DNA of 63,451 bases, filler included, from Welwitschia mirabilis (Eukaryota): NCBI GenBank assembly GCA_051453625.1. It is 9 parts of one record of this genome, joined end to end, with 100 filler letters (N's around TTAATTAATTAA, not from the genome) between each part and the next. Parts side by side here need not be neighbours in the genome. Positions count along the whole stretch, not along the records: positions 20,097 to 30,957 come from JBOZIK010000001.1; 8 more parts are not named here. The stretch is one strand, 5' to 3'. This document shows, one piece after another, positions 6,330 through 53,738 of this stretch. Within the stretch, counting starts at the first letter, position 1; every line of letters begins with the position of its first letter. The notes under the pieces are model-generated. The model was not told where the DNA came from. It searched no databases and saw only the letters and a list, made by a program, of their open reading frames with translations. The position numbers and the translations under genes are program-made.

Positions 6330-8602
6330 AGTACTTGTATTTGCTAATGGTCACATCAATTGTAGATATCTATACTTAAGGTATCTCTGCCTCTTTTCAA
6401 ATTTGAATGTCCATATCCCATAGGAAACAAGCTAAAGTCTGAAGATGTATAAGTTGATGCTTGCCACAAGCTTCTAGTATATCAAAGCATCTAAATAGAG
6501 CTGAGAGGAGGTATGAATATCCTAGAGTGTATATGTGATGGACCTTAATCATCGACTTAAGTCTCCTCTAAATGAATGTTGGTAGATCCATCTACTTTTT
6601 TTGTCTAAACATCACCAATATCTACAAATGTGCTATCATGACATGACTATTTTGGAAGGAAAGATTAATGTTATAGATCAACCCTTTGTATATAGTCTGA
6701 TAGGTAGGTGATAAATATACCACCAAAACACCCTGCTTGTCATTAGTAACATCAGCTGAAATATCTAATATTACACCATAAGCATGATGCTCCTTTATAT
6801 TACTAGTTGAATAAATGTATGTATTTCTAATACCATCTAAGTCAGTGAAACATAAATGTGGCTCAAAAGAATATATATCTTGTACCAGTGAATTGTAGCT
6901 ATAATCATGTCAACTAAGTGGTCATGTACATCAAATCACCTCTCAATGTGCATGGTGTCATAGAACTCTCTAGTCTCTGAGGCATAATAAACTTTATGTG
7001 CATTTATTATTCATATAAGCTATAAATATGTCAATATTTGATCTACCTCTAGCTTAACACTTCTTATAAAGTCTTCAAAATGTATCTCTACTTAGATAGA
7101 AGCTCATTGAATAGAGAGCATTTAAGCTTATCTAGGTAGTGGATGCATAAGCTCTACATNNNNNNNNNNNNNNNNNNNNNNNNNNNNNNNNNNNNNNNNN
7201 NNNTTAATTAATTAANNNNNNNNNNNNNNNNNNNNNNNNNNNNNNNNNNNNNNNNNNNNCTATAAATATGTCAATCTTTGATCTACCTCTAGCTTAACAC
7301 TGCTTATAAAGTCTTCAAAATGTCTTTCTACTTAGATAGAAGCTGATTGAATAGAGAGCATTTAAGCTTATCTAGGTAGTGGATGCATGAGCTCTACATG
7401 TACAATCACAAGTGGGACTAGTAAGCCAACATCTTGCTTTGATTCCTTAGCCTCTACCTTAACCTCAACTTATCTAACTTGTCATGTACATGGCCTAATC
7501 AATCACAAATGCAAAGTGCATCACATGAGATCAAGTGAAAATTGCTAAAATNNNNNNNNNNNNNNNNNNNNNNNNNNNNNNNNNNNNNNNNNNNNNNNNN
7601 NNNNNNNNNNNNNNNNNNNNNNNNNNNNNNNNNNNNNNNNNNNNNNNNNNNNNNNNNNNNNNNNNNNNNNNNNNNNNNNNNNNNNNNNNNNNNNNNNNNN
7701 NNNNNNNNNNNNNNNNNNNNNNNNNNNNNNNNNNNNNNNNNNNNNNNNNNNNNNNNNNNNNNNNNNNNNNNNNNNNNNNNNNNNNNNNNNNNNNNNNNNN
7801 NNNNNNNNNNNNNNNNNNNNNNNNNNNNNNNNNNNNNNNNNNNNNNNNNNNNNNNNNNNNNNNNNNNNNNNNNNNNNNNNNNNNNNNNNNNNNNNNNNNN
7901 NNNNNNNNNNNNNNNNNNNNNNNNNNNNNNNNNNNNNNNNNNNNNNNNNNNNNNNNNNNNNNNNNNNNNNNNNNNNNNNNNNNNNNNNNNNNNNNNNNNN
8001 NNNNNNNNNNNNNNNNNNNNNNNNNNNNNNNNNNNNNNNNNNNNNNNNNNNNNNNNNNNNNNNNNNNNNNNNNNNNNNNNNNNNNNNNNNNNNNNNNNNN
8101 NNNNNNNNNNNNNNNNNNNNNNNNNNNNNNNNNNNNNNNNNNNNNNNNNNNNNNNNNNNNNNNNNNNNNNNNNNNNNNNNNNNNNNNNNNNNNNNNNNNN
8201 NNNNNNNNNNNNNNNNNNNNNNNNNNNNNNNNAAATGTGATAAAAATTGAAAAGTGTAAAATAAGTGGGCCTCACAAAAGGTTAAAAATGAAAGTACTCA
8301 AATCAAAAATCTAGTTTAGTAGAAACCTAGACTTCATTACACTGATTAATTTACCTATAAAAACCACTAAGTTTTGGCTAATGGTTTTCGAAAAAATAAA
8401 TTTTAAAGACAAAAAACCTAATTTTACCTTGTATAATGCACAAAATTAGATATATCATTAAATACTTAATGAAAATTATATGTGCAAGTACCAAATCAAA
8501 GAGCACAAAAAACTAATTGATCTAAGTGAAAAATACATACTAAAAGCTTGAAAAATATGAGAAAAAATTCAAAATAATAAGGGATAGAAAAACATACCTC
8601 AT
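6330..8602 (-). pseudogene. Accessory (env-position) gene of copy B, putatively spliced
   Basis: ATGAG|GTATG at 8602-8593 and acceptor TAG|GCCA at 7497-7491; translation aligns with 21972-22900. Cut at 6330 by copy A. Confidence 0.75.
7204..7215. other. Artificial scaffold linker TTAATTAATTAA inside a ~100-nt N spacer (also 20041, 31002, 39847, 44266, 48301, 52817, 60984)
   Basis: Identical 12-mer with stops in all six frames, centred in N runs eight times. Confidence 0.95.
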
Positions 8603-11029
8603 TTTAACAAATGTGATGATGTCTTGCAATCTAGGATGTAAAATTAGCTGGTGCAATATCCAAAACATCCGTGGACCCTAACATGTCATATGGCGCATGA
8701 AAGAATAGACACAAATCGCTTAAGAATGAAGAAAAATAACAGAAAAGAATTTTAGTCATGGTTTTATCACACTATCATCCATCACGTCATCTAGATGACA
8801 ATCCTAGGATGACTATAAAAAAAATCTCATTTATCATCCTCCTTATTATTTAGATCACTAGATGGATGATGGAATTTTTAAAAATTCCAAAAAAAATGAA
8901 AATGTGAGTTGAACAAGTTATGCTTAAATATTAGTGTGAAAGTATCAGAATTTATCAGAAAATCCAAAATATGGAGAATGGTGAATAATCGTGATGAATA
9001 AATATAAAAAATGGAAAAAAATCCAAATAATTAAAAGATAAGATGATGAAAATGTCCTAAGTAGGATAAAGCATAATAAAGAAAACTAAACAATTATGCC
9101 TAAATTGGAAAATGGTCATAAAAATATGTAAAACTCTAAAAGATTCAAAGGAATAGCATGAAAAATTGTAATGAACATCATCTAATCAAAAGAAAATATT
9201 AGCTAGTCAAAATGCTAAAAGTAAGTTAACTNNNNNNNNNNNNNNNNNNNNNNNNNNNNNNNNNNNNNNNNNNNNNNNNNNNNNNNNNNNNNNNNNNNNN
9301 NNNNNNNNNNNNNNNNNNNNNNNNNNNNNNNNNNNNNNNNNNNNNNNNNNNNNNNNNNNNNNNNNNNNNNNNNNNNNNNNNNNNNNNNNNNNNNNNNNNN
9401 NNNNNNNNNNNNNNNNNNNNNNNNNNNNNNNNNNNNNNNNNNNNNNNNNNNNNNNNNNNNNNNNNNNNNNNNNNNNNNNNNNNNNNNNNNNNNNNNNNNN
9501 NNNNNNNNNNNNNNNNNNNNNNNNNNNNNNNNNNNNNNNNNNNNNNNNNNNNNNNNNNNNNNNNNNNNNNNNNNNNNNNNNNNNNNNNNNNNNNNNNNNN
9601 NNNNNNNNNNNNNNNNNNNNNNNNNNNNNNNNNNNNNNNNNNNNNNNNNNNNNNNNNNNNNNNNNNNNNNNNNNNNNNNNNNNNNNNNNNNNNNNNNNNN
9701 NNNNNNNNNNNNNNNNNNNNNNNNNNNNNNNNNNNNNNNNNNNNNNNNNNNNNNNNNNNNNNNNNNNNNNNNNNNNNNNNNNNNNNNNNNNNNNNNNNNN
9801 NNNNNNNNNNNNNNNNNNNNNNNNNNNNNNNNNNNNNNNNNNNNNNNNNNNNNNNNNNNNNNNNNNNNNNNNNNNNNNNNNNNNNNNNNNNNNNNNNNNN
9901 NNNNNNNNNNNNNNNNNNNNNNNNNNNNNNNNNNNNNNNNNNNNNNNNNNNNNNNNNNNNNNNNNNNNNNNNNNNNNNNNNNNNNNNNNNNNNNNNNNNN
10001 NNNNNNNNNNNNNNNNNNNNNNNNNNNNNNNNNNNNNNNNNNNNNNNNNNNNNNNNNNNNNNNNNNNNNNNNNNNNNNNNNNNNNNNNNNNNNNNNNNNN
10101 NNNNNNNNNNNNNNNNNNNNNNNNNNNNNNNNNNNNNNNNNNNNNNNNNNNNNNNNNNNNNNNNNNAACAACAAAAAAAAAATAGAATGAAAATGGATAA
10201 CTAGGAATATGAAAAAGATAGCATACCTATCCTAAATTATAACTTAACAAATCTCCTTAGAAGACATCATAAAGCTACTTGAGTAAAGATGTATGATAAA
10301 ATGTATTAACTTCATAAAGTTCCATTTGATAATGTAATGATTATGATAATACTAAAGATTAAATGCTCTAAATAATAAATAATAAGATTAAAAGCTACTT
10401 GAAAATGAACTCACTTTGCTCAAAACCCAAACTACATCTAAATTCTTAAAAGTAAAATAATCATGTGGGAGTACTAGGAGTCTAGGAAATAAGAGATTCC
10501 TTTGATAACACGAAGAACACCACTGATTCCCTAGTATTAGAGTGTTATTATTACTTTTTATGATGAGGGGAGTGCAACCATAGTTAAAGACATAAGAACC
10601 CACAAAGCATGGCCAACAGACCCACTAGTGGAGTTTCCATAGCCACTAATACTATCAAACATTTCTTTTAGAAAAATTTACAATAGATCATCATCATTAT
10701 TCTTTTCTTTCTCTCTTTTTTTAACTTAAAATAACTCCCACATGATCACAACCTAAGAAAATGAAGGTAAAGAAGTAGGATAAAAGACAGAAAGGAATAC
10801 ATTTAAATGACCAAAGACCTTACACCATTGATAAAAATGCAAGAACCAAGACATCTTACTTTGAAATAAAGTTCACAGATATGTCAATGTCTTAAGATTA
10901 GGTAAATCTAATCTTATCACTATAAAATGCTTAAGTATGAATCCTAGTCATGGAAACTTCATAAAACAAATACATAAGTCAAGTTAAAAATGATTAAGTG
11001 ATATCCTAACATCCACTAAAGGAATTAGC

Positions 11030-13725: not shown

Positions 13726-13779
13726 ATTTACTAGAAGATGAATTATCACTTAGGAAATAAAAAGGGAGATGATAAGATT

Positions 13780-16700: not shown

Positions 16701-17102
16701 GGGCTTCCTATACTATATGGTGTAATTGTCTTGCTTTTTTACCTTATAAACTTGTATACAAAAAAGTTTGTATTTTACCTATTAATGTCTTATCATTATT
16801 CCCATCAACTTAAACTTGTAGACCTTTATGATAATATTAAAAATAGATTAGCTTAACTTAATCACTTACATAAAAAATGTACTCATGCTATGCATCATCA
16901 ACTCATTCACAAAACAAAAGCTAAGTTTAAACATGATAGAAAGTTACTTTATTAAAAGTTTAAATCTTCTCAAATTATTATTTATACAATACTAGAGTAC
17001 ATCTTTTACACAATAAGTTGACATTTAAATGGTTAAGTCCTTATCTTATAGAGAAAGTACATTTTAATTGCTCTATTGAGATTTTAGATGAAAAAGACAT
17101 CT
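13780..17102 (+). pseudogene. Degenerate pol of Athila-like copy C (post-protease linker, RT, RNase H, integrase)
   Basis: WRMCIDFRKIN at ~14740, IFMDDFSIFG at 15043-15072, NYTTTKKEIL at ~15590, NYVTKWVEAIP at ~16380, KWLSPY at ~17027. Confidence 0.92.
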
Positions 17103-17202
17103 NNNNNNNNNNNNNNNNNNNNNNNNNNNNNNNNNNNNNNNNNNNNNNNNNNNNNNNNNNNNNNNNNNNNNNNNNNNNNNNNNNNNNNNNNNNNNNNNNN
17201 NN

Positions 17203-17427
17203 TGTTTGTAAGATAGAGAGTTGATAGAGTTTTGTGAGGCATTCTTGCCTAAATATTATTATTGCCTTGAAGCCTATTCTTGACTTGTAATCTTTAAGAA
17301 GATAATAGAACTCTACACAGTTTTCCTATGGTTTTTTCCCTCATTGGGGTTTTCCACGTAAGCCCTTATCTCTTCGTGTTCTCTTTCTACATTATTTACT
17401 AGCTTTGCTATATGTATTTTCATAATA
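17203..17427 (+). repeat. 3' part of a Ty1/Copia-type LTR inserted in Gypsy pol
   Basis: Contains CCTATGGTTTTTTCCC...GGGGTTTTCCACGTAA, resembling the U5 motif of Tnt1/Tork-like LTRs. Ends CATAATA (decayed CA end), immediately followed by Gypsy IRPDWNKYF codons. Confidence 0.6.
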
Positions 17428-19690
17428 ATAAGACCTGATTGGAATAAATATTTCAAATTAATATGTGATGCTAGTAATACTATCATGGATGGGGTTCTTA
17501 GACAAAAGTATTAAAATGATTTTAAAGTCATATTTCATCATAGCAAAAATTTTTCTAAAGCTTAATCGAATTACATCACTATTGAGAAAGAAGTGTTAGC
17601 CATAATGTTTTACCTTGATAATCTTAGATACTATCCTTTAGGATTTTATGTAATATTTATACCAACCATGTAGTTATTAGATACCTTATGATCAAGAAAT
17701 ATTCTAGTGTAGACTCATTAGATGGATTCTTCTCATTTAATAATTTAATCTTATTATCATTGATAAAGTAGGAAAATATAATAGTATAGTAGATCATTTC
17801 TCACGTCTTTTTTCTTCTTTTAATCATCTTGTTATTGATGATTCTTTTCTAAATGAATAACCTTTTGTCATATCTTTTACTCATCGTCCTCCTTGGTATA
17901 CTGACATAGTTAATTATATTATTATTATAAAAATACCACAACATTGGAATCATAATTAAAGAAAATCTTTTCTCCATAGAATAGGTGGTTATGAATGGAT
18001 AGAGCCACATCTTTATCATAGGTGCAAATACTAAATCATGTGAAAATGTATGCCTAAATGGAAAAGTTTAGACATCCTTCATCTTTGCCATGGTGGTATT
18101 TGTGGAGGTCATTATAGTAGATAGAAAATAGTAATTAAAATTTTTCACTCTGGTTTTTATTGGCTTAGTCTTTTTTAGGATTCTTTTGATTTTGCTAGAA
18201 AGTGTGATGCTTATCAACATTATGGTATTCTTATTCATTCTCATGATATACCCTTTAAATCTATTCTTAAATGTAAATCTTTTGATTATTGGGGACTTGA
18301 TTTTATAGGCCCTATTAAACCACCTTCTAATAATAAGAACTACATTTTAGTTGCTATTGATTATGTTACTAAATGGGTTGAAGCTATTCCTACATTTATG
18401 AATGATGATAGAATTATTTACAATTTTATTAGATCTTATTTTTTTAAATGTTTTGATTTTCCTAAAATTATCATTAGTGATTAAGGAACTTATTTTACAA
18501 ATAATCTTTTTAGCAAACTTCTTTCATTCATTGAAATTGAACGTAGATTAGTTTATTCTTATCATTTAAAAACTAATGTTTAAGCTAAAAATGCAAATAG
18601 AGAAATAAAGAAAATGCTTTAAAAACTTCTTTTCATTAATAAAAAACTTGGGCTTCTAAGATTAATGATGTTTTTTGGGCTTATTATATTACTTGTGTGA
18701 TTCTCGTAGTTTTACACCTTATAAACTAGTGTACAAAAAAATTTGNNNNNNNNNNNNNNNNNNNNNNNNNNNNNNNNNNNNNNNNNNNNNNNNNNNNNNN
18801 NNNNNNNNNNNNNNNNNNNNNNNNNNNNNNNNNNNNNNNNNNNNNNNNNNNNNNNNNNNNNNNNNNNNNNNNNNNNNNNNNNNNNNNNNNNNNNNNNNNN
18901 NNNNNNNNNNNNNNNNNNNNNNNNNNNNNNNNNNNNNNNNNNNNNNNNNNNNNNNNNNNNNNNNNNNNNNNNNNNNNNNNNNNNNNNNNNNNNNNNNNNN
19001 NNNNNNNNNNNNNNNNNNNNNNNNNNNNNNNNNNNNNNNNNNNNNNNNNNNNNNNNNNNNNNNNNNNNNNNNNNNNNNNNNNNNNNNNNNNNNNNNNNNN
19101 NNNNNNNNNNNNNNNNNNNNNNNNNNNNNNNNNNNNNNNNNNNNNNNNNNNNNNNNNNNNNNNNNNNNNNNNNNNNNNNNNNNNNNNNNNNNNNNNNNNN
19201 NNNNNNNNNNNNNNNNNNNNNNNNNNNNNNNNNNNNNNNNNNNNNNNNNNNNNNNNNNNNNNNNNNNNNNNNNNNNNNNNNNNNNNNNNNNNNNNNNNNN
19301 NNNNNNNNNNNNNNNNNNNNNNNNNNNNNNNNNNNNNNNNNNNNNNNNATACATCCTTAACTCTTTTACAAAAATTAAGCTAAGTTCAAACAGAAAAAAC
19401 TTACTTCATAAAAGGTTTAAACCTAGTCAACTTATTCTTTTATACAACACTAGAGTACATCTTTTACACAACAAGTTGACATCCAAATGATTAGATCCTT
19501 ATCTTATAGAGAAAGTACATTTTAATGGCTCTATTAAGATATTTGACTTAGACACTAAGAAGATTCAGAAAGATAATAGATGAAGGTTGAAAATATATGA
19601 AAATGTTTTTGATGCAATCTTGAACATGATAGAAGTGATTATCTTAGAGGTTCCCCTCAATAAGAAGAACTTCCTCCCTATCATTGTCTA
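17428..19690 (+). pseudogene. Degenerate RNase H and integrase (copy D)
   Basis: ICDAS, NYITIEKEVL, HLCHGGICGGH...KCDAYQ zinc finger, WGLDFIGP, DYVTKWVEAIP, ISD*GTYF; no chromodomain recognised. Confidence 0.92.
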
Positions 19691-21416
19691 AATTTTTTCT
19701 TAGCCAATTCCTTTGATGGATGTTATGATATTAATTAATCATCTTTAACTTGACTTATGTATTTGCTTTATAAATTTCCACAACTAGTATTCGTACTTGG
19801 GCATTTTATATTGATAAGATTGGATTCACCTAGTCTTAAGACATTTACATGTTTATGAACTCCATCTTAAAGGAATATGTCTTGGTCCTTGTGTTTTTTT
19901 CAATGATGTGAGGTATTTGATTATTTAGGTATGTACTTTTTTGTCTTTTATCTCACTTCTTTACCTTCATATTTTTGAGTACATATTCATGTGGGANNNN
20001 NNNNNNNNNNNNNNNNNNNNNNNNNNNNNNNNNNNNNNNNTTAATTAATTAANNNNNNNNNNNNNNNNNNNNNNNNNNNNNNNNNNNNNNNNNNNNACAC
20101 ACACACACACACACACACATAAAGAATAATGAACATGATCTATTGTATCTATGCGAAAATACATGGTCACCATGATGTCCTATCATATTGGAATAAATGT
20201 TTTCTAAAAGGAATCTTTGATAATATTGGTAGCTATGGGAACTCCACTGGGGAATTAGTTAGTCATGCTTTACATGTCCTTACTTCTTTGACTATGGTTT
20301 CACTCCTCTCATCATGAAAAGTAATAATAATACTTTGAGATTATGGGATTAGTGGTGTTCCTAGTATCATCAAAGGAATCTATTATTTCTTAGACTCTTA
20401 GTATTCCCATATGATCATTTTACTTTTGAGGATTCATTTGTGTTTTGGAGATGTGAATAGATGAGTTCATTTCTAAGCAACTTCTTATCACTCATTGTTT
20501 TGAGCACTTGATATTTGGTATCATCATAATCACTGCTTTTTTGTGTGCAACTTTATAAAGTTAATACATTTATCATGCATCTTTACTTAGGTGGCTTTAC
20601 GATGTCTTCTATGGGGGTTTTCTAGGTTAAAATTTAGGATAGGTATGCTATTTTTTTTCATGATCCTAGTTGTCCATTTTCATTCCTTTTTTTTGATTAT
20701 TTGATTTATTATTTTAAAGTTATTTTCATAAGTTTTTATTATCATTTTTAAGACCTCATCATTCAATAGTTTTCTTATTATTAATTTTACTTTTACTTAA
20801 TTATTTTATCAATAAATTTAATTTTATTTTAGAATTTTAATTAGCTAATGTTCTTTATGATTTTTATGATGTTCCTTTAAGTATTTTTAACTTTTACATA
20901 TTTTCATAATTATTTATCTATTTGGGCATATTTGTTCAGTTTTTTTATTAAGAGTCATCTTACATAGTGCATTTTCATTATTCTATTTTTTAATCTTTAA
21001 GTTTTTCTCTTTTCTTATTCTTATTCATCATAATTATTTACCATTCCTATCTTTGAGTTTTTTAAAAAATTCTAATACTTTCACATTGATATTTGAGTCT
21101 AACTTATTCAACGGATATTTTCATTTTTATGAAAATTTTCAAAGTCCCATCGTCCACCAGGTTGTTTAGATGATAAGGCTGATGATAGCTAAGATTTTCT
21201 GAGAGTCATCCTATGGTTGTCATCTAGATGACGCAACTAGACAATAGTGTGATAAAACTATAATTATGTTTCTTTTCCATCATTATTCTTCATTTCTAGG
21301 TCATTTTCATCCAGTTCTTTGAGAAATGATCATCACGCTAGAGCTTATCAACATGTTGGATCTTTCACCTGTGAGTTTAGTACCCCAGATTATGAGATTT
21401 AAGCGAATTTGTAAAA

Positions 21417-23200
21417 ATGAGGTATGTTTTTATCTCCCTTATTACTTTTTTGTCCTTTCCATTTTTAGCCTTTCAGTTCATAGCTTTCATGTATATTATT
21501 TAATTTTTCAGGCTTTTTATTTTGATACTTATCAATTTGATTTTTCCCATGTATTTTCTGAGATATTTGAATTTTGTGTATTTCATGAGATATAATTGGG
21601 TTTTTATCTTTAAACATCATTTTCTCAAAGTCCTAAGTTGAAACATAGTTGTCCTTATAGGTAAATTAATTAGTATGATGAGCTCTACACTTCTACTGAA
21701 TTAGATTTTTAATTTGAGCACTTTCATTTTTGATCCTCTGTGGGGTCCACCACCTATTTTACACTTTTTTATTTTTATCATGTTTTGCACTTTTTATTCA
21801 CACAATTAGGCAATATGAAATGTATTAATTCTATTAAGAGGGGAGAAAGATATATTTTCATGATTTTTACACTAAAAATCAATTTATGAGATTGTTTAAA
21901 GCTTTTAGGAAATACATTTAGCAATTTTCACTTGATCTTGTATGATGTGCTTTATGTTTATAAATAATTAGGCAATGCACACAATGAGCTAGATAGGCTA
22001 GGGTAGAGTCTAGTGATTTAGAGTAAGATATGGGCCCATTATTACCACTTGATATTAAGGATGCAAAGCCCATTCATCCTCCACCTCATCAGTTTCGTGA
22101 TTCCATTCTATTAGACAACCTATATCTGAGTTGAGAGGTACTGTAATGATTTTATGATCCAATTAGAGTTGGAGGTAAATTAGAGATAAATTTTTAGCTC
22201 AGGTGGATTTTGAATGCACATAAAGCTCATTACAACTCAAATACTAAAGAGTTTTATGGCACTATACACATTGAGAGGCGATTTAATGCTTGTAACCATC
22301 TCATTGATACAATTATAGCTACCATTTGTGGCTATGAGATATCTATTTTCCTGAGCTACATCACTACTATTATTAACTTAGGTGGCATCAAGAATACACA
22401 CATTTACTTAGTTAGTGGTATTGAAAATCACCGTGCTTGTGACATATCACTAGAAATACCAGCTAATATTACGAGTGATAAGTAGGGAGTTTTGGTGATA
22501 CATTTATCACCTTCCTATAAGATTCTTCACATAGGATGAATTTATAACATCATTCCATCCTTTCATAATAGTCATGTCATGGTAGCTTATTTACACATCT
22601 TGGCAGTATTTAGGTAGGAGAAGGAGATGGACTTATTGACTTTTATTTGGAGGATACTTAGGATGATGATTAAGACTCGATAGCTATAGATTCTAGAATA
22701 TCCATGTCTCCTCTTAGTTATGTTCAGGCACTTTGGTATACTGAGCATATAGGTGAGTAAAGATTCACAAGTCTATAGATATTAGCTTGTTACCTATAGG
22801 ACATGAGCATCTAGATTCCAGGAGTGGCAAAGAGACTTTAGATATAGAGATTTATAGTTGGTATCATCACTAAGTAGATTCAAGCTCTCCTGGTTAACAC
22901 AACATAGGGCCCTAAAGAGGTTGTAGACCAAGGCTTTATTGAACTATAACATAGGATACCCATTATTGAAAAGACATTTAGAATAACGAAGACTAGTTGA
23001 CTAATGTGAAATAGTACATATTACGCATTGAGCATAGTGTAACAGTTGACATCCTAAAGTTAGGTAAAGTATAAAGAGATGAGACTACATACTCCATAAT
23101 AATAGTTCTTGATCATAATTTCCCTATATATCTTGAGCACTCTCAATCTTATTCACCTATACTTGAGTTGATTACACATCAGAAATTTATTTTGACATGA
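21417..23200 (+). pseudogene. Accessory gene (~410 aa) with Transposase_32 (PF20167)-like domain; exon 1 21417-21421, intron 21422-21971, exon 2 21972-23200
   Basis: Motif string KEFYG...ICGYEISI...LSPSYKILH...NIIPSFHNSHV...MDLLTFIW...LEYPCLLLVMFRHFGI resembles Athila-lineage extra-ORF proteins (judged by eye). Splice sites are conserved in three copies. Confidence 0.75.
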
Positions 23201-23713
23201 TGCGGAAAGTGATTTATTATGTTGTATTATATACCTTCCCTTTATGGATTGTATTAAAAAATCATGATTTTATATAGACATCATTTTTGTAGTATTATTA
23301 TTATATCCATTTTTCATTTTTAAGATATTATTGCACATCATATTATTAAGACATTTCATGATGATAAATGTTTATGTTATACATAATTATTTTCCATGAT
23401 ATACTATACATTTAAATGAGGGGATACTAATTCTATTAAGTTTTAATATTCATTTTTCTAAAAAGCTTTTTGTAGGCTTCTATTTTTTAAGAATAATTTT
23501 TGAGCCTGTTGTCCCTGACATCATCAAGTTGGCCACTAGAATAATAGTAAGGTTACTTACTCTGCATAGATGAATTAGCTCTTTTTGACATTTTTATTCT
23601 ACATTGTGAGATTTTTGAAATTATATTAGAGTTATTTTACTATTTCCTAGTTAATTTATCTTTAGTTAGTTTGGCTGAAAATCATGGTTCTTTACTTGAT
23701 TTTATTAGGAATT

Positions 23714-23735
23714 GATAAGACTAAGTGGGGAGCTA
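23714..23735 (+). promoter_or_regulatory. Polypurine tract of copy D
   Basis: GATAAGACTAAGTGGGGAGCTA directly precedes the TGTTGC LTR start; the same arrangement occurs at 40660-40681 and 61952-61970 (minus). Confidence 0.8.
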
Positions 23736-24935
23736 TGTTGCACTACCAAATTATATTATTTGATAGGGTATGTTGAGTATTTTTGTAAGACATTAAATAG
23801 GTTTATACTGAGTTTCAACGATAATAGAGAGCTAAAGCAACTATCATGGAAATATGTAATCTTCGTTACATTTGATAGCATTTTAGAAAAATTACAACAC
23901 TTCCTATCTGAAGTAGTGATCCTATAATTAAAGAGGCTGATCTAACATAAAAAATATCTATACAAAATCTGTTGTCCACTTTATCATCTAGATAATAATA
24001 TAGATGACAAAAGAACTTATGTTGCCTAAGACACTTATTGAACTAATTTAGTAGCTGATGTAGCATCATCCCTTGTGATGTCTAGAAGACTAACAGGATG
24101 ATACCTCACTACAGTGCTTCACCAAACATCACTAAACTTTTGCCATGTGTCTTGTACCTTCTTACGTGGCTATTAGGATTTCACCATATTTGTTAATATT
24201 TTCTATTTTTAGAGTTTTTTTTTTGTAATAAATACCTCTTTTTTCCTTGACCATGAATTCATTTTCTTTAGAACCAAAAATTATTGTGATAGGAAATCGA
24301 AGAACAAGAAATTCATCCTTTATTATTACAGAGAGATGTATTCCTTAGTGTTTGGCTATGTATCCTTCATTGAGATTCTACCATTTTGTAACATGGATGT
24401 TGGTTCTAATATAATCAAAACTCTATTTTTCTTTTCATATCTTTTTTTATGTGCATCTCCCTTATGGTTTATATTGCTTAAGATTTTGTGACAGCTTCAT
24501 CTGTGATATAGATCACAAGGGTAACCTTTATTAAGTTTGATATTTTTAGTTTAGGAGCATTGCATTTCATTTTCTAGATTAACTTTGCATTGTTTTCATA
24601 TTTTTTTAATGCACTTAGAAGCTTAGGTTAGTTTTGGTCTAGTGAGAGATTTCCCTGATTAATCTAGATTATATAGGACTAGTTCCTATGATAAGTTAAT
24701 TTGGTAATTAAATAGATGTTGCATTTAAAATAGATTTTGCATCTAATTTACATAATGAATTTAGTTGCATTGTTTACTTTGCGTTATTATTTTTTTCTAC
24801 TTAAAAAGTGCATAAGTATTTTATTTTAAATTAATTTTCTTTTTTCTTACCAGTTCCTTTAATGGAATTACAACATTTGCATTCACTTTTATCTATATTA
24901 ATGTGTTGTATTATGAAATATATTATAAGATCCTC
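23736..24935 (+). repeat. 3' LTR of copy D, missing roughly its last 35 nt
   Basis: Starts TGTTGCACTACCAA; homology to the other LTRs ends near ATAAGATCCTC. Confidence 0.8.
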
Positions 24936-25407
24936 ATTTTTTAGTAACCAAAAACTTCATGTAATGATGCTTTGATATCAAGATGTAAAACCCACTCTTT
25001 TGAGTTTGAAAGATATTACTTTTGAAGATGTAACATCCATATTTTCAAAATTGAAAAATATTACTTTACTTAATATGGCATATTTTTCAAGTAGTGATGA
25101 ATGTTTCCTCTATTTTAAAGTAACCTAGAAAAATTTCAACATTTGCAAAGAACTACAAATTTCATTTCAAGATAAATTCTCAAGATTTTTTTTTTGTAAG
25201 AGAATCATAGCCAAAATTCATATTTCATTAAAATAATATCTCAAGAAATATGTACATAATCCAATATTTAATGTATTTTTAAGCTAATCATAATATAATA
25301 AAATTCAACATTTTCAATAGGTATACAAGTCTCACTCTAAATAATTTTACAACATCAACCTTATGGTTATGAAATGAGAATAATCAATATTTTTCTCATA
25401 TTTCAAT

Positions 25408-25585
25408 TACTTCACTGCCTCATTTGGTAATCTGTGATTCTCATATAATATTTTCACATTTTACTTATTTCATTACCTCATTTGGCAATCTGTGAAGCCA
25501 CTGCCTCATTCAATAATCTGTGATTCTCATGTATGTATGTGTGTATATATATCACATCTCATTCACTTCACTACCTCATTTAGAT
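25408..25585. repeat. Short degenerate tandem repeat, unit core CACTGCCTCATTTGGYAATCTGTGA, about 4 copies
   Basis: Copies start at ~25413, 25471, 25499 and 25569 (last one partial). Confidence 0.8.
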
Positions 25586-25876
25586 TACAAGAATCGGAAT
25601 TTTCGATGTGGTTGAGACTATTGAGCTAGTAGGATTTTCTCATCACTCTGCATACTGATGTGTCATTCTCAAGCTTCTTTTAGTAGTTGGTCCTTGTGTG
25701 ATGGCGTGTCGTAAGCTCATTGGGTCTTGTGTAGTGGTGTAGCTTTTTCCTTTTGCTCTTGCGCAGCGTCGTGATGTGTATTGAGTGACTTTATTTCTAG
25801 TCGCTTTTTAAATTTAGCTTTTTTAATTAATCTGGCTATTAGCATATTTTTAAGTTTATGACAGCAGACTTCTAGC

Positions 25877-27428
25877 ATGGCAGTGGTCTCTTTTTATTCC
25901 ATGCGGATCTTCATACATCCTTTTATTTTGAGCCTTATTTTCAATGTTTTCATGAGCCTTCTATTCAAAATGAGCAGCTCTTTGATCTTTCAGCTTCTGT
26001 ATGCATGAAAAATCGCTAGATATTTGCATGCACTAGAGAGATTAGAATACTAGTAAAGCCATTGACAGATCTTTAAAGGAATTCTATGCATGCATGTTAC
26101 TTCTCCATGAAAACCCTACATGCAACAACCTCACATCTTTTTTTAGAAAAGTTTTCTATTTTTCATACTTATCTCATTTTTTTAAATATCCTTGCATATA
26201 TTAGATTTATCAACTTCAAAAGCTTATTCTAAGAAATGAAAAGTAGAAATTTCTGAGATTCCTCTTAACTCCACGTCAATAGATGCAGATAATGATATGG
26301 CTTGTGTTATTGTAGATTTAGAGTTTCCTTAAGATTTTTTTTTACAAAATTGTTTGCACCTTTGAATAACTTTATACTATCAGTTTTTTTATTGCTAGAA
26401 TTCCTTCTTTCTCTATTCTTATTGACTAGATCTAAAAAAATTGGGTTAGCAAGAACATTAGAACCTTTGTCATCTTAATATGATCAAAGGTTTCTTCCTC
26501 TTTGATTTTGAATCTAAAAAAATGATGAATTAGGTAAAACAACAATAGTTTGAAATATTTTAGGAACTTATCTTATTTTGTAGCCATGGTTTAAAGTCTT
26601 TGATTCAGAAAAATCTACATAAAGTACTATTCCAATTTGAATTGAATTCCCAAATCTTCCAATTAATTTTCTTTCTCATGTTGATGTATTGGCTGCTAAA
26701 ATTAGATATGTTATTAAAATGGAGACCTTTTCAGGGTTATGTGCCTAACCCACAAGGAGAATTTGTGTATCTGTTAATTTAAACAAACCGTTACTAAAGG
26801 TTATATGATTATCAGTAGATGGAGCTATTATTCTCTAAAATATTACCTATTTAGCTTTGCCAAATTTATATTACTATTATAAAGAGTCTAACCATGTGAG
26901 GGCATGTTGTCCTAAAATCCTAGCCAAGATGGAAGCAGATAGAGTTTTAGCAGATAGAGTTTTAGCAGAAGGTAGCCAACGAACTCCATTAATATAAGCT
27001 TATAAGGGAAAATATCAAAACTTCTCATGAAGCAAATCTTAATAATCATACTACTCAAAAACCAGTCGACTCTAAGATCAATAAATCTAACACAAAAAAC
27101 ATAGATAAAGGTTCTCAAAAGTCTACAGAAGAAGTTCACACTGCTAGTTAATAGGATAATCAAGTAACTCCTTAATATTCTAAACCTCTTAGTAAGGATA
27201 ATGAAATAGATTAAGGACGAAAAATAATTAGTAAAAAATTTATGCTCATATCACTAGAATCAATCCCTTATTTAGTCCTTCTAGGGCTACAAATCATATG
27301 ACTAAATCTAGCAGTGATATCATAAATCAATTTAAAAGTTCAAGCAGATTAGTAGCAAACAGTTTTAAGTCTACAAATTCATGGCAGGTCATTAGAAAGG
27401 GATTCAGGTCTCCTATCAACCTCATGTC
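25877..27428 (+). pseudogene. LINE ORF1 (DUF4283-like region plus zinc knuckle), degenerate
   Basis: KGFFLFDF, PWFKVFD, IPI*IEFPNLP, CVSVNLNKPL and YYYYKESNHVRACCP (decayed CX2CX4HX4C). The start position is uncertain. Confidence 0.75.
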
Positions 27429-30400
27429 ATGAATCTCATCTCTTAGAATGTTTGAGGACTCTCAGACCCCTGAAGAAAATAAATTATCTGAGATTATATA
27501 GCAAAAAAGAATTTAGATATAAGCTTTCTTTAAGAAGTTAAAATTTAAGGTTTTCAGCTTCAATCTTCTTGTAATAGCATCATTCCCAAGAATTTCTCTT
27601 ACATTTCTTACCACTTTAGAGGCAGAGGAGAAGCAATTATTCTCCTTCATTAGAAGTTTAATAATCACATTATTAATCATGATCTAGATCCTGAAGGCAA
27701 TTGTGTTTTTTCTTAAATTGGAATAACTCCATAACTGGTATGGCCAATATTTATGCTTCTCTTCTAGCACATCTTGCACATCAGATAGATGTGCTCTTTG
27801 GAAATGGCTCCATGAATATCTTTCAGAAGCTTCTTGTATCATTACGGGAGACTTTAATATGATCGAAAATGTCAAAGATAAATGAGCTAGTAATAAAGAT
27901 GGTCTAGACATCAATGAACTCAATAGTTGGATGTCTCTTAAAAACAAATTTCAATTATATGATGCTAATGCTGCTACCAAAACTAACTCTGTTAAGGGAT
28001 GGTTTACTTGGTCCAATGCCAAAGTAGGGTTAAGTTTTATTACTTCTAAGCTTGATTGGATTTATTTGTCTTCAAATACAAATATTATTATCTCTCATCA
28101 TATGAAGCTCCTAGTTTCAGTAGATTACACTTAGGTTTTATCTGATCATTTCATCATTTTATGATCTAAGTCTCTTAATATGCAACATATCAAAAAAGAT
28201 TTTTTTATTTTTAACATTTCTTTCCTTTAGAATAAAAAGATGTGTTCTCTTCTCATGCACATTTAAAACCTTGTTCCTCATCTGGTTAACAATGATAGAT
28301 GGATTAACTGGTGGAATAATAGTATTTTATGTACTTAACATTTTGCCAAACATGTAGGAAAACTTTTAGTAGCTAATATAGCCTTTATCAAAAAAGCCTC
28401 ATGTCTGAAGTAGAATTTTATCAACTAAAAGTTAACTCTAGGTACTCCAGTAACTAGGATTTTAATTCTTTGAAAATCTATAAAGACTGTTTGATAAAAG
28501 TTGAGCATTACAAGGCCCAAGGTGCCACCTTCATGCCTACTCATCTTGGCTCAGAATAGGAGATCAAGTCTTTTCTTATTTTTTCAAATTTTTAAAAGGT
28601 AAATACTCTTTTCCTCATATAAAAGCTATTAAATATGGAAATGTTATTCACACATCCAAAGAATAGATTCTTCAAGTGTTTTTATAACCATTACTCTCAG
28701 GTTTTCTCTGCTCCTCTAGTCGATGATGTATCTATTAATACTTGTCTTACTAATCTGCAACCCTTTAATCNNNNNNNNNNNNNNNNNNNNNNNNNNNNNN
28801 NNNNNNNNNNNNNNNNCTATACTCTGCATTATCTTAAGGATGATAAAGCTCCAGGTTTGAATAATCTTCTAAGATAATTCTTCTCCAAATTCTGGCACCT
28901 AATTGGTATATATGCTTATAATGTTTACAAGGAGGCTTTAAGCAACAAGTCCCTTAGAAATTATCTTAACACAGGAATAGTTAAACTTCTTTTTAAATTA
29001 GGGGATTCTCATAACACCAATAATTGGAGACCTATTACTCTTTTAAATGTGATTTATAAAATTATTACTAAGGCTATGGCTAATAAACTAAAGAAATTTT
29101 TTCATGATCTCATCTGTATAGAGCAAATAAGTTTTGTTTATAATAGGTACATCCTAGATAATGTTATAAATATAGTCGAGTCTATGCATTGGGCTAACAA
29201 TCCTTTCAATAAGCTATTCTTTTAAATCTTAATTTTGTAAAAGCCTATGATAGACTTGATTGGCATTTTCTTACTAGAATTATTTGTCATCATAAATTAG
29301 GAGAAGTTATCATCAATTAGGAGAAGTTTTCCAAACCCATGTTTAGATTCTTCTTGCCGATGCCACTTCTATGATCTTCATTAACGATATCTTCTCTCAT
29401 CCCATCTCTCTTCAATACTTAGTTAGATAGGGATGTCCCTTAGCTCTTTACCTTTTCATCATAGTAGAATATGCTCTTGAAATTCTTATTAAATCTCAAA
29501 AGTCCATCAAAAATATTCATGACGTTTACCTTCACAACAGTAACATAGTTTCTTATAGTCAATTTGTGAATGATAACTTCCTCTTAATCAAAGAAACTGA
29601 ATTATATTTTTAGAAGGCTATTGATACTCTAAACATTTACTATCAAGCTTCAGGTTCTCAAATTAATTGAAGCAAAAATGATGCCATTCATTCCACCTTT
29701 AGTGGAAGGCCTTCCTAATCCTACCATTTTAATATACGATGGTTTTCTCCTATTGATCATTTTAAACTTCTGGGAATCCCTATTACTCTATTAGATACTT
29801 TTTCTAGTATGTGGTAGATAGTTATCCACAAAATTAAAGAAAAAGATCTCAAATGATCCGGTAAGCCCTTATCCTTAGCTGGAAGGCTTATTTTTTGCAT
29901 TCATATTATTAGCACTTTTCCAATTTATTATGCTTCCTTCATGGTATCCTTCACTTCAGCTTATAAAACTATTAACAAAATTGTGCAAAGTTTTTTATGG
30001 AAGAATACTTCAAGTGATAAAGTTTTTCATAGAGTGGCTTGGAGCATGTGTCACCATTCTAAATCCTTAGGCAAATTAGGGATTCCTTCCTTAGAGCATA
30101 AAGGTATTTTATTAGCTTCCAAATGGATTATTCATTTCTCAGATGATGATGAGGCCTAGAAGATTTTATCCAGACATTATTTCTCTAATACTAGCATGAG
30201 TTCAAATCATTTATGAAAAAATCTTCACTTGAGTAATTCCATTTTCTCTAATATGTTTTCCAGCAAAGTTTTAAGGCTTAACACAAAATCAAACACTTTC
30301 TTCATTGGCATTAGGTTAAACTAAGTCACAAGCAGTTAGTAACTTATTCTCCTTGGTGATCTTCTATCTTTCAGATAGCAAATAAATTTTTAACTTCTTA

Positions 30401-30957
30401 CTCTTTAGTTAGATTTCATAGATTGGCTAAAGCATGGCTTCTTAAATTAGACCAATTTATTACTCTTCAAGAAAATTATATCAAAATCAATTGGTTTCAT
30501 CTTAAAACCAAATGAAAGGTTTAAAATTAGATCTTTCTATCATCAGACATATTGAAGAAGTGATTTATAAATTTAATTGACATCATAGCAACCTGAACTG
30601 ATTGGATGATTTGTTTTGGCTTGATGGAAAAAATATTACCCAACTTTTTCTTTCTTTAGCTGCATGTGATTTCAAACTTCAATAGTTTCATAAAGAAGCT
30701 AAACTCCAAATGTCATTTCAACTAGATGAAAGACAAATGGAAATAATTTTTCAAGGAAGTTTGAAGGATTAAATCTCATTCTAAAATCAAACTTTTTTTT
30801 TGGTGTCTCATTCATCAAGGGATTTCTATGGCTCATTACCTTTAACTTTTGGGAGTGTCTCATCCTTTGTGTCCTTTATGTTAAGATCTAGAAACCTTTC
30901 AAAATACTTTTTAGAATTGTTGCATTGCTAGTCAAGTTTAGGATTTGATCAAAAGTA
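27429..30957 (+). pseudogene. LINE ORF2: AP endonuclease, reverse transcriptase, zf-RVT; degenerate
   Basis: MNLIS*NV*GL start, GDFN, SKLDWIY, SDH, KAPGLN, NWRPITLLN, KAYDRLDW, R*GCPLALYLF, QFVND (from FADD), LGIP, and C-terminal CPLC...NC. Confidence 0.93.
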
Positions 30958-31057
30958 NNNNNNNNNNNNNNNNNNNNNNNNNNNNNNNNNNNNNNNNNNN
31001 NTTAATTAATTAANNNNNNNNNNNNNNNNNNNNNNNNNNNNNNNNNNNNNNNNNNNN

Positions 31058-34944: not shown

Positions 34945-36175
34945 TTGCATAGATAATAGCCTGATTTTTATGTTAGTTGTCCTAGGGCTATAGTCTGAAT
35001 AATGCAAGAAGACAATAATGTGATAAAACCATAGCCCAAATCTTTTTCCTCATTTTTACTCATTTTCTTATTGTTTTCCTTCATTCTTTTGAGAGACAAT
35101 GACCCCTCTGTCTAGTATTAGCATTTTAGGACTTGTCCTGTCTGATTTCATTACCAGATTCACAAGATTTATTTAAATTTGTAAAAATGAGGTATGTTTC
35201 TCTCTCCTCTTGATTTTTCCCTTTTTTCTCTCGTTTTTTAGCCTTTTGACGCATAGGTTTGATGTATATTATTCATTTTTTCGCATTCTTTATTTTGGAA
35301 CTTATGGAGTTGAATTTTACTATGTATTTTTTGAGTTTTCATTACTTTTGTGTATTATAAGGTATTTTTAGGTTTTTAATTTTCACACTCATTTTCTCAC
35401 AAACTGTAAGTCGAATCATAGTGATCTTTTATGCAAAATTGATCAATAAAATGTGCTCTATGCCTTTACTAGATTGGATTTTTCATTTGAGTAATTTGAT
35501 TTTTCATTTCTTATAGGGCCCACTACATACATAGTTTTTGGACGTTTTCCATTTTTATCCATTTTTTCTCCCATGATTAGGTAATTCAGGACATATTACA
35601 TCTTTTTTGGAGGCAGGACATATTTTTCGTATTGTTGATAAGCTTTCATCAATTTTAGGGGTCATTGTTATGCATTCATGTGATTTTTTTGACTTGTTTA
35701 TCTATTTTCGCATGATAGGTTTATGTTTGTAATTGAGTAGGCCACATACATGTAGAGCTAGATAGGCAAAGGATTTAGCTGATTCTATAAAGTAGGAGGT
35801 AGACCCTTTAATTGAGCTTGAGATATAGCATGTAGAGCCCACACACTTACCACCTCAACACATATGATCTTTGAGCATAGAAACAACTAGCATTTATATC
35901 AAGAGATACTTTGGAGATTTCATGAGTTGCATAGAGTCAGAGGTTAATCAGAGATTGATAGAATTATGGCTTAGATAAATCAAAAATGTGCATGATGCAT
36001 ATTATGGTTCTAAGATAAGAGATTTCTATGACACTATGCATATAGAGAGACGACCAGATACTCATGGTCAACTACAGGATATAATCATTATGTACATTCA
36101 AGACCACAAAAGATCTATTCTTGCATCTCACATTATAGTCATCATAGATCTTGGAGGACTTAGAGTCTTGAATAT

Positions 36176-37248
36176 TGTTATGCCACTAACTTACATGTAT
36201 TTGATAGGATATTTTAAGTTATTTTATAGATAAAATAGTAGATAAATGCTTAGTTTCCATGATAATGGAGAACCAAGATGAAAAGGATGGAAATATGTAA
36301 TTTCTAGATAAATTACAAGAATTCTATGCAAATATGAATGAACGGTATTTTAGATGATAATTTCTTGCAAACAATAAAGTGACTGGACTGATTGAATATC
36401 CATTAAAAACCACTATCCACCTACTCATTCAAACATCAGTGCAGACGATCGTGCCAATTGGATGATGATAGGTCTCATAGGTAGTCAAACTAGCAGCAGA
36501 CAAGGATCTAACTATCAGTCAACATCATCTCCTATATCGTTTAGACAACCAGATGAATGACACTGTTTTGTAATGCTTGCACTACATGATTACTTGAGAT
36601 TTCGTCACTTATTTTGATTTCTTCTTACATGGAGTTAGGGTTTTTCCTATGACTTTCTATTAGTTTCATTACTTGTTTTGAGTCCATAAGTAAAGGTATC
36701 TCCCTTGACTCCTGATCATCTTTGATAGTCCCTGACATACTCGTGATAGGAGATCGAAGGACTAAAAAACCATTTTATAATTTCAGAGAGACGTTACCTT
36801 GGTATTAAGTGGCATTTCCTCCATTGAGAAAGGCTACTTTGTAATATGAAATATTTTTTTTTGTGTTTAAATGTATAAATAATATTCTTCCTCATAGTTT
36901 ATGTTATTTAGGATTCGGTGACAATTTTCTTTTATGATATAGATTATGAAGACAACATTTGTCAAGGTTGTGCTTAGTTAGTTTAGGTGCATTGCTATTT
37001 TATTTCTTAGATTAGTCTTACAAAGTGTGTTTTATTTCATTTCCATGCATTGCAAATTATTTTTGTAGATTAGGATTACCATATTTTTATCTTAAAAGTA
37101 ACTCTTTTATTTCCATATTTTAGTCTTCAATAGATTATGACATTCGGGTCATTCCCATCTATATTAGTGTATTGTATTTATGCATATTATTTGTGGTTAA
37201 TATGATTCTAATTAGGACATAAACATTGCATAAATATGTATTACAACA
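36176..37248 (+). repeat. 5' LTR of copy K
   Basis: TGTTATGCC...TATTACAACA; direct repeat of 40682-41777. Confidence 0.92.
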
Positions 37249-37251
37249 TCT

Positions 37252-37269
37252 TGGTGCCATTGTCGGGAA
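37252..37269 (+). promoter_or_regulatory. Primer-binding site, tRNA-Asp type
   Basis: TGGTGCCATTGTCGGGAA differs from TGGCGCCGTTGCCGGGGA only by transitions. Confidence 0.85.
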
Positions 37270-37599
37270 AGACTGCTTGAAGTTTGAGAGTTGTCATTGC
37301 TTTGGTAAGTATTCCAGATTCTTGTTGCAGCAGCAGTGTAATAATATTAGTAGTGACGTGAGTTTTTTTGTTTTAGTTTTTCTACTAAAAATTTTATAGT
37401 GTTAGTATCATTATCCCTCTGTCGTCTAGATGACACTGGTGGATGACAATCTATTTTCTCAACCTTTCTATTATAAAGTCATTTTTTGTTTCTCTTTTTA
37501 CTTTTTCTTTTCTTGTATTTTCTATGTTTCTCTCATTCAGGTTATCATTTAGACATCATACAAGATGGTACTTTTACAGATCCAAGACAAAGTATGAAT

Positions 37600-41777: not shown

Positions 41778-43040
41778 GATATTCATTTAGTTGGTGGAAT
41801 AGAGGAGCATCGAGCTTATGGAACCATTTTAGACATTCTAGCTAATTTGACCATTGGTCAACGAGGGGTAAATGTTATCCATCTAATCCCCATGTATAAA
41901 GTTTTGCACAGATGACTGATTCATAACATTAGTCCATCATACTATGATAGTCATGCTATGGCTGCACGTTTTTAGATTCAAGTAGCTTTCTATTAAGGGG
42001 AGTAGATGGATTTATCTACTTTTATCTAGAGGCGACCCAGGTTTATGATTAAGACATAACATCTATAGACACTTGATTATCCATGCCTCCTCTTAGCTTT
42101 GTTTAGATGATTTGGGATACTAGAGCCCATAAGTAAGTGATGTATCTTACATATTCAAACTTCTGTTTGCTATTTATAGGATATAGGTATACAGGTACCA
42201 AAAGAGATAGAGAGACCTCAGGTATAGAGACTTGTAGTTTGAAGCTTCATTAGAGTAGATTCAGGCCATTTTAACTAAGACTACCAAGATCCTTAGAGGT
42301 TTTGTTAATTAGAGGTTCTACGCCTTCAAGCATAGAGTTGAGTAGAGAATCTTATCTATCAAGAGGAGAGTACAACACATAGAGGACCAAATGATGGACA
42401 TGTACCAGCATATTGTCTTCATTTTGCAAAGTGTAACTATAGATATTCTAGAATTAGTATGTGTCTAGAGTGATGAGACTGTCAGGTCTACTATAGCATC
42501 TCTTAATGTCCATCTTCTAGCATACCTTGAGCATCCTCCTCCTTTATTCCCTACTCCTGAGCTAATTACTGAACTAGAGCTCATTATGCGTATATGAGGG
42601 GAGTGATTTTGCATTATATTTTTTTATCTCCCCTTCTACACTTTTTATACTAAAAGATCTTATTATTATATAGAAATATCATTTCTTTTTAGCATGACAT
42701 ACTATTTCTATTTGACTTTTACATGATTATCTTTCAATTTTTATGATGAGGATTGCATTTTAGTTAGGGTAAAATCTTTATATTTGACTATTTATTATAG
42801 TGAGAGGCTATTTATTATGATTAATTAATTATCTAAGAAAATCAATTTTTGTCGCAAGTTCCAGTTTTAAAAATGCTTTATAAAGCCTGTCGTCCTTTAC
42901 ATCATCTAGATGACTGTACCAGACGACCAATCTTTAATGCTTCATAGGTGTTTATGTTCAGTGTTTCTAATTTTTCAAAAATTTAGTCTTTCTTTGAAAA
43001 TATTCTTCAAATCTTTTTGAAATAATTTCTAAAAATTTAG

Positions 43041-43291
43041 TGGCATACTATGTACTTTAATTAATGATATAAGAATTTATGAAGCCTACATTGGTAGTGT
43101 GACATCCGATACAATTTCAGGTCTGATGATGTTAGTATGATATCAACAGTTTGGCATTCTATAGTAATCTAATTAATGATGTCAACATTTAGAAAGCCTA
43201 CATTAGTAGTGTAAACCCTATACGTTTTCAGATCCAATGATGTTAGCATGATATTAGTAATGTAATGTCCTATAGTAATCTAGTTGATGAT
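43041..43291. repeat. Tandem repeat with ~111-112 nt period, ~2.3 copies
   Basis: AGCCTACATT at 43083 and 43195; TATAGTAATCT at 43160 and 43271. Confidence 0.85.
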
Positions 43292-53675: not shown

Positions 53676-53738
53676 GTTTTGGTTATAATTTTGGTTTTGG
53701 TTATAATTTTGATTTTGGTTATAATTTTGGTTTTGGTT
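53676..53738 (-). repeat. 18-bp tandem repeat in gag encoding (NQNQNY)n
   Basis: GTTTTGGTTATAATTTTG repeated ~3.5 times. Confidence 0.85.

Follow-up and report, generated by a model that had tools for sequence, protein, structure and literature searches.

Within a 63,451-nucleotide (nt) stretch of the Welwitschia mirabilis genome (assembly GCA_051453625.1), here called the window, three decayed copies of a retrotransposon (C, D and E) share a layout that is best, if tentatively, explained as that of dead Athila-type Ty3/gypsy elements whose extra open reading frame (ORF) after pol may have been served by splicing, an explanation to which we give somewhat less than an even chance. The layout would run from pol through a long U-rich spacer and a less U-rich island to a 5' splice site, GAG/GTATGTTT (the slash marks the junction), and from there through a U-rich segment of about 550 nt to a 3' splice site, TAG/G, and an extra ORF of the Transposase_32 or 'Athila ORF-1' type. 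In active relatives the extra ORF would most likely be expressed from a spliced subgenomic RNA without the 550-nt segment; the island would be a small exon, probably itself joined to an upstream leader exon, and splicing would bring the ATG, which stands five bases ahead of the donor, into frame with the ORF, so that translation could begin there. Packaging and copying would draw on the unspliced RNA, and genomic copies would for this reason keep the intron. Use of the splice sites, initiation at the ATG and the existence of an upstream exon are all things that we infer from the DNA. As to the parts of this explanation, that the conserved block described below is the 5' splice site of an intron which genomic copies retain, with the extra ORF made from spliced RNA, seems to us only just short of an even chance, while full donation of the start codon, the ATG five bases before the donor starting the protein, is doubtful; the lower estimate reflects an early stop common to the copies, a missing coding signature near the junction and further ATGs upstream.

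The evidence that carries this explanation is the block itself, which has the appearance of a splice donor directly behind a start codon. The sequence ATGAGGTATG is found exactly three times in the window, by direct reading as well as by pattern search, and at the three places listed in a first-pass annotation of this DNA: 21417 on the plus strand (copy D), 35187 on the plus strand (E) and 8602 on the minus strand (C), the copies being named here by these ATG positions. It forms part of a longer block, TTTGT[A/T]AAAATGAGGTATGTTT, which begins at 21408, 35178 and 8611 (minus) and is identical in D and E, with one mismatch in C; with the junction marked, the block reads TTTGT[A/T]AAAATGAG/GTATGTTT, likewise with exactly three occurrences in the window, and the textbook form of its donor is AG/GTATGT. 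The copies differ pairwise by 32-40% in a three-way alignment of 1371 columns, covering the exon-1 side, the 5' portion of the spacer and the ORF in its N-terminal and middle portions, and in these columns the 16-nt AAAATGAGGTATGTTT is the longest invariant run, followed by one of 11 nt (TGTGATAAAAC) and then by one of 9, the longest run inside the coding domain being 9. When invariance was shuffled within base classes, a run of at least 16 arose in 42 of 5000 trials and a stretch with 22 of 23 columns invariant in 4 of 5000, so that the block is conserved beyond what composition explains. Conservation extends 14 nt into the exon side, over the A-rich context of the ATG, and a donor alone is therefore insufficient as an explanation.

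It could be argued that the block is no splicing signal at all and survived by chance, or as a mutational cold spot, in related decaying copies that are perhaps partly segmental duplicates of a copy already dead. Its composition is of the kind this would call for, the top strand holding no cytosine and the five C of the bottom strand all standing in CHH context, the class that mutates least (the invariant share is 0.39 for CHH, 0.25 for CG and 0.17 for CHG); C and D adjoin each other in inverted orientation in a gap-filled scaffold, a stop common to all three copies would suit a dead common ancestor, and conservation is higher in the T-rich spacer than in the ORF. Yet shuffles that kept CG, CHG and CHH contexts as separate classes reached a run of at least 16 in only 94 of 10,000 trials and 22 of 23 columns in only 12 of 10,000, the copies have diverged by the 32-40% already given, E lies in a different setting, 5'-truncated and with a nested element, and donor, start context, U-rich body, acceptor and frame all coincide. 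Survival without function is, in our view, quite improbable.

Downstream of the block, an acceptor-like TAG/GC ends at 21971 in D, at 35740 in E and at 7495 (minus strand) in C, and the acceptors and the spacers of 550 nt (D) and 549 nt (E) that the first-pass annotation had described are borne out. In all three copies the spacer has a T content of 0.465-0.485, as against 0.37-0.38 in the roughly 260 nt before the donor and 0.29-0.32 in the ORF, and all three carry, as a sequence motif, YAG/G just 5' of the extra ORF. D and C additionally show a YTRAY-like TTGAT (about 36 nt before the AG) and 48 nt free of AG ahead of the acceptor; the 5-7 invariant bases of the acceptor are unremarkable taken alone. 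Three codons 5' of the acceptor an in-frame stop is present in every copy (TAA, TAA and TGA), including C, for which the annotation had not claimed one, and D and E differ by single-base gaps just ahead of the acceptor, which together indicate that the ORF does not simply extend upstream. The spacer is kept in all three copies, and the window shows none in which island and ORF are directly adjacent; if the spacer is an intron, it must then have been retained in the RNA that was reverse transcribed, and the annotation's proposal to this effect gains conditional support.

An acceptor in this position could also serve retrovirus-like env splicing, in which only the site at 21971 would matter, joined to a far-upstream leader donor, and the block, instead of supplying the start codon, would serve as a decoy or alternative donor, as a signal for exon definition or as a binding site. 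About 2 kb of non-coding DNA separates pol from the ORF, in agreement with what Wright and Voytas (2002) reportedly described, and the ATGs upstream in the island speak against simple scanning to 21417. This proposal does not account for the strongest conservation of the 1371 columns falling on a perfect donor that precedes the acceptor by 550 nt, nor does it provide the ORF with a start codon common to the copies. The comparison covers the window, and the family's 5' leader, with any distant donor, lies outside it. Splice acceptors have been predicted ahead of the env-like ORFs of Bagy-2 and Athila (PMC2829016, as excerpted). On balance a distant donor appears unlikely.

Removal of the spacer gives the readings MRQCTQ*AR*AR (D), MRPHTCRAR*AK (E) and MRPCT*QVR*VE (C), exactly as in the first-pass annotation, which had also stressed that the join lands in the coding frame each time. 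The frame indeed fits in all copies, which are not three independent events: as the junction letters are identical throughout, the match counts as one event with a chance of 1/3. For an in-phase ATG at that one offset the probability expected from the measured base frequencies is about 0.02.

Several observations weigh against splicing with donation of a start codon. The spliced reading meets a stop at its ninth codon in all three copies (TAG, TAG and TAA), and this stop sits in TAGATAGG, 8 nt without variation, and within the stretch that ranks second for conservation around the junction. Most simply read, the stop is old, in which case the ATG would open only a nine-codon frame. In the middle of the ORF, stops stand in two of the three copies at five of the ten stop-bearing codon columns, and in all three copies at none; parallel decay at the ninth codon is accordingly possible, though not the simplest reading. 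Nor does the coding signature reach the junction. Over the first 60 codons, synonymous changes account for 17 of 136 changed codons in the ORF frame and for 30/139 and 21/139 in the other two, whereas codons 61-146 give 46/162 in the ORF frame versus 18/164 and 24/165, and the middle of the ORF gives 95/332 versus 46/328 and 53/340 (the spacer, as a control, yields 31/225, 38/211 and 46/229 by frame). Between E and C, the frames do not differ over codons 1-30 and the signature of the ORF frame appears only from codons 31-50 on (6/17, then 8/18, with at most 3/18 in the other frames). An aligned ATG about 61 codons in is present in two of the three copies, in frame in E (35922), out of frame in D owing to local indels (22154) and replaced by ATA in C. 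The island, moreover, holds other ATGs within 101 nt of the donor, three in D, one in E and four in C, one of which is aligned in all copies at 96, 93 and 92 nt before the donor (D, E and C). Conservation of the spacer is not specific to an intron, its invariant share being 0.574 versus 0.50 in the ORF. Finally, the copies are few and old, and their independence may be doubted, C and D being inverted neighbours in a gap-rich scaffold.

The ninth-codon stop, conserved within TAGATAGG, the lack of a coding signature over codons 1-30 past the junction and the aligned ATG of E and D would together suit a different role for the block, in which the intron is real, the ATG opens a short upstream frame of nine codons, the ORF starts later, at a lost ATG or a non-AUG codon, and the mini-frame tunes translation. 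This is hard to reconcile with a signature that sets in at codons 31-50, ahead of that ATG and with no shared in-frame ATG between, and stops common to two of three copies are frequent, as noted, in a part of the ORF that is certainly coding; we hold it to be rather improbable. The first-pass annotation had found no initiator near the start of the ORF and had named an in-frame ATG in exon 2 as what would speak against its proposal: no ATG is common to all copies in frame within the first 60 or so codons, E does have an ATG of the named kind about 61 codons in, aligned with one that is out of frame in D, though the coding signal begins upstream of it. Splice-gated translation, as proposed there, keeps in its favour the conserved donor block and the U-rich spacer and has against it the shared stop, the absence of an early coding signature and the upstream ATGs. 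Fusion of an upstream frame to the ORF across the intron was considered and rejected, no frame 5' of the donor being open in all copies.

Transcript data add to the points against splicing with a donated start codon. Four runs of raw RNA reads labelled as the same species, drawn from two studies and of about 1.7-1.9 billion letters each, were mapped to 20100-25100 at 80% likeness, and 91, 64, 32 and 29 reads were placed, none of them at least 95% alike and 86-100% of them continuing for at least 20 letters unlike the stretch. Depth was zero in the bins of 20768-22604 in all four runs, apart from a single bin in one of them with 0.22, and no splice joint was seen on 20100-25100, the reads lying outside the donor, the spacer and the start of the ORF. 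The search for junction reads that the first-pass annotation had suggested could thus be made and returned none, an outcome that is uninformative. The four samples show no visible expression of the window copy or of a relative with a likeness of 80% or more. The reads that match in part, at 20100-20430 and 23440-24600, differ chiefly in A>G and T>C changes; expressed look-alikes thus carry G or C where the window copy has A or T, which fits decay of the window copy by deamination. Of 24 sequencing runs listed, 12 contain part of the stretch (two organism codes, three studies), and none of these is on record as RNA.

Nor was an intact relative obtained from the protein and contig searches, a further point on the same side. 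The 410-amino-acid read-through of D gave 845 word candidates and none at E<=0.01, a 123-amino-acid piece of C gave 37 candidates among longer proteins and no relative, and phmmer against 1.84 billion representatives returned 0 matches at E<=0.001; the 22-mer of the block had 0 matches in genome contigs and 0 in viral contigs, and peptides from pol found no relative in viral contigs. A single match of the 22-mer in a metagenome contig was set aside as chance, the contig being AT-rich, coding and bacterial-looking. With collections poor in plant sequences and so heavily decayed a query, the lack of matches is uninformative on rarity.

Upstream of the donor, the island may hold a second splicing signal. 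The 11-nt TGTGATAAAAC stands 174, 173 and 174 nt before the donor in D, E and C, and is followed by a pyrimidine-rich, AG-poor tract (0.73/0.78/0.67) in which the first AG comes at +51 in D and +52 in C and is absent in E; a candidate acceptor, CTAG/G at 21298-21299 in D, is aligned to TTAAG/C in C and is absent in E. The 11-mer and its tract look like a second 3' splice site, and may possibly represent a branch point, a promoter element or a TATA-like box with a pyrimidine patch. If the second 3' splice site were real, the island would be an internal exon of about 120 nt and the mRNA multiply spliced. A scheme of this kind, resembling that of complex animal retroviruses, with the accessory protein made from multiply spliced RNA, a small internal exon with its own acceptor and the conserved donor supplying the AUG, and the 550-nt intron, retained in genomic RNA, gating translation, can be put forward only as a less than likely one. 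Ahead of the island D is very T-rich (0.50-0.57 in 20600-21099); the end of pol near 19700 was placed by eye from the translation, and a scaffold joint (19997-20096) falls in the spacer that follows pol in D. Just 5' of the 11-mer a 14-nt perfect palindrome, GTCATCTAGATGAC, is present at 21219-21232 in D and at about 8799-8786 (minus) in C, and has decayed in E.

As to the identity of the elements, domains of reverse transcriptase, RNase H and integrase, found by Pfam scans of stop-read-through translations in the case of the piece at 17440..18547, all lie on the plus strand upstream of D in the order of Ty3/gypsy elements. An extra RNase H of archaeal type, the mark of the sister clade Tat, had no match in the pol pieces scanned, which are decayed and interrupted by N. 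The extra ORF shows a likeness to Pfam Transposase_32 (PF20167) in D (E=0.043, 14.1 bits, residues 83-257 on profile positions 11-176 of 177) and in the second part of the ORF in E (E=0.0012, 19.2 bits, profile positions 94-176); these two of six ORF pieces match at collinear profile positions and far under the 45-bit cut-off, and PF03078 had no match among the six pieces scanned. The first-pass annotation had compared the ORF with that found in the env position of Athila-lineage elements, and of this the env position, behind a Ty3/gypsy pol, stands, while the domain likeness is weak; its end coordinate of 23200 falls short, as the ORF of D continues beyond it. Filing the elements under the Athila lineage appears reasonable, not proven, given gene order and a weak domain match. 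Near the C-terminus of the ORF a hydrophobic, aromatic-rich stretch was noted by eye at 23212-23260 in D and at about 43000-43060 in E, and might correspond to the membrane segment that env-like proteins are expected to have.

Two other identities were rejected. The block is not a polypurine tract followed by the start of a long terminal repeat (LTR), since similarity between copies continues across it into the ORF; and the ORF is not the gag of a following element, as no pol follows it and PF03078 and PF20167 mark extra ORFs of Athila (PMC6317226, in the excerpted text). According to excerpts of the respective papers, an active Athila of sunflower carries Transposase_32 in its 3' sense extra ORF (PMC11728184), and the related 'Athila ORF-1' domain marks extra ORFs in 16% of Athila elements (PMC6317226). 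Coordinates are collected in the table.

Features of the three copies and their surroundings, in window coordinates
Feature	Position	Strand	Remarks
Conserved 22-nt block, copy D	21408..21429	+	A-rich start context, ATG 21417-21419, AG, donor-like GTATGTTT, GT 21422-21423
Conserved block, copy E	35178..35199	+	ATG 35187, GT 35192
Conserved block, copy C	8590..8611	-	ATG 8602-8600, GT 8597-8596
Candidate intron, copy D	21422..21971	+	550 nt, U-rich, ends TTAG
Candidate intron, copy E	35192..35740	+	549 nt
Candidate intron, copy C	7495..8597	-	681-N run 7552-8232 inside; true length not measurable
Invariant 11-nt TGTGATAAAAC	21248..21258 (D); 35019 (E); 8771 (C)	+, +, -	Second longest invariant run
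Hypothetical mini-exon, copy D	21300..21421	+	Ends ATG AG; 5' limit a guess; island with T 0.37-0.38 between T-rich stretches in 3 copies
T-rich non-coding spacer after pol, copy D	19700..21160	+	T 0.456 over 20100-21160; collinear with C
Decayed accessory ORF, copy D	21972..23277	+	28 stops in first 410 codons; local frame shifts
Accessory ORF part 1, copy E	35741..36182	+	tblastn against D residues 1-147; cut by nested LTR element
Accessory ORF part 2, copy E	41784..42255	+	tblastn against D residues 146-302
Accessory ORF, copy C	6342..7494	-	tblastn; N gap 7160-7259, frame change near 6850
Pol remnants upstream of D	17440..18547	+	RT_RNaseH E=2e-13, Integrase_H2C2 E=0.0018, rve E=5.8e-07
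Second pol piece	14599-17100	+	RVT_1 E=7.3e-12, RT_RNaseH E=5.9e-07

The window is a draft scaffold with 43 runs of N and a G+C content of 29% outside them. CpG stands at 0.18 of expectation with no excess of TpA, a signature of methylated plant-type DNA and not of fungal repeat-induced point mutation. Self-comparison of the window shows a nest of old repeats, one pair of which is 96% identical and the others 65-83%. Collinearity of C and D extends from pol across the spacer into the ORF, and E begins only about 220 nt ahead of the donor, being truncated at its 5' side. Within 5400-24600, C on the minus strand faces D on the plus strand head to head at around 13750-14400, and two 3' halves of pol follow one another on the plus strand (15451-16770 and 17426-18745; 80% alike, with a 100-N gap between); the head-to-head arrangement and the repeated pol halves go back either to an old duplication, inverted or in tandem, or to an artefact of scaffolding. 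Linkers of TTAATTAATTAA flanked by 44-N runs recur in the window (for example at 7204-7215, 20041-20052 and 31002-31013) and mark scaffold joints, one of which separates pol from the spacer in D, and the same part of the ORF of C is repeated on both sides of the gap at 7160-7259.

The ORF of E is split by a nested LTR element at 36176-41783, whose internal part is short and filled with N, whose LTRs (about 36188-37246 and about 40694-41775) are 81% alike and which may be flanked by a 5-bp target duplication, AATAT/GATAT, identified by eye. At 39908-40503 lies a fragment of a fourth copy of the C-terminal part of the ORF, with 44-54% amino-acid identity to the second part of E by tblastn. Elsewhere, a LINE-like non-LTR element (LINE, long interspersed nuclear element) was recognised by eye on the plus strand at about 26500-30900, with an endonuclease-type GDFN motif and reverse-transcriptase-like stretches, and a short tandem repeat at 25400-25600 on the minus strand, of unit CAGATT(A/G)CCAAATGAGG(C/T)AGTGAA, has AAATGAGG in common with the donor block by chance. 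Rfam at gathering scores gave 0 matches in the window and a tRNA scan 0 genes, and a Pfam scan of 52874-54975 in the three plus frames gave no match.

The case as it stands is a lead and not a result, resting as it does on three dead copies without a transcript. It bears on a subject, the translation of Athila-type extra ORFs, that is poorly described, and, if true, would supply a concrete and testable mechanism for their expression, a junction sequence usable as a marker of extra-ORF mRNAs in RNA sequencing, a further parallel between plant 'endogenous retroviruses' and complex retroviruses, and a warning to annotators, since ORF finders miss or truncate such genes. No published description was found of a short local intron with a donated start codon before an Athila extra ORF, in a search outside of which lay Wright and Voytas (2002) and Vicient et al. 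(2001).

The comparisons that follow draw on excerpts of the papers cited. The closest known systems are Athila of Arabidopsis and Bagy-2 of barley, which are likewise Ty3/gypsy elements with an extra sense ORF after pol and an acceptor just ahead of it, and in which the ORF is served by spliced RNA, Bagy-2 splicing having been reported (PMC7264820), and unspliced RNA is the genome (PMC7197481, PMC2829016, PMC7264820), whereas the present case consists of a sequence pattern. Their intron is described as retrovirus-like and as taken from full-length RNA, in contrast to the second, local donor seen here, which lies 550 nt before the acceptor and comes with an ATG. Sunflower Athila_14 has the same type of domain, Transposase_32 (PF20167), in a sense ORF after pol, and described as it is, it counts as one more point against an intron in this position: its extra ORF is a single ORF of 487 amino acids with the domain at 133-312, so that the N-terminus ahead of the domain is longer than the 83 residues seen here, and the excerpted description, on which the comparison is made, mentions no intron (PMC11728184).

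Plant LTR retrotransposons are generally without introns, Ogre and EVADE being exceptions (PMC12786077; for Ogre also PMC6317226). In Ogre, with an intron between gag-pro and the reverse transcriptase, and in EVADE and BARE1, with alternative splicing for gag, genomic copies keep the intron and partial splicing decides which protein is made (PMC12786077, PMC6317226), as would be the case here; those introns lie within gag-pol and set the ratio of Gag to Pol, whereas the candidate intron follows pol and would gate an accessory gene. A small internal exon that ends a few bases past an ATG, with the body of the protein in the next exon, is known from human T-cell leukaemia virus type 1 (HTLV-1), whose exon 2 holds the start codons of Tax and Rex and ends in ATGG/ (PMC4488940). 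HTLV-1 is an animal retrovirus in which doubly spliced mRNAs have been demonstrated, whereas here the pattern stands in dead plant elements, and the likeness is one of mechanism, not of family. Spliced env-type RNAs (Athila and Bagy-2), retained introns (Ogre and EVADE) and exons that donate a start codon (HTLV-1) are thus already known, and the arrangement in Welwitschia, if true, is a variant of these.

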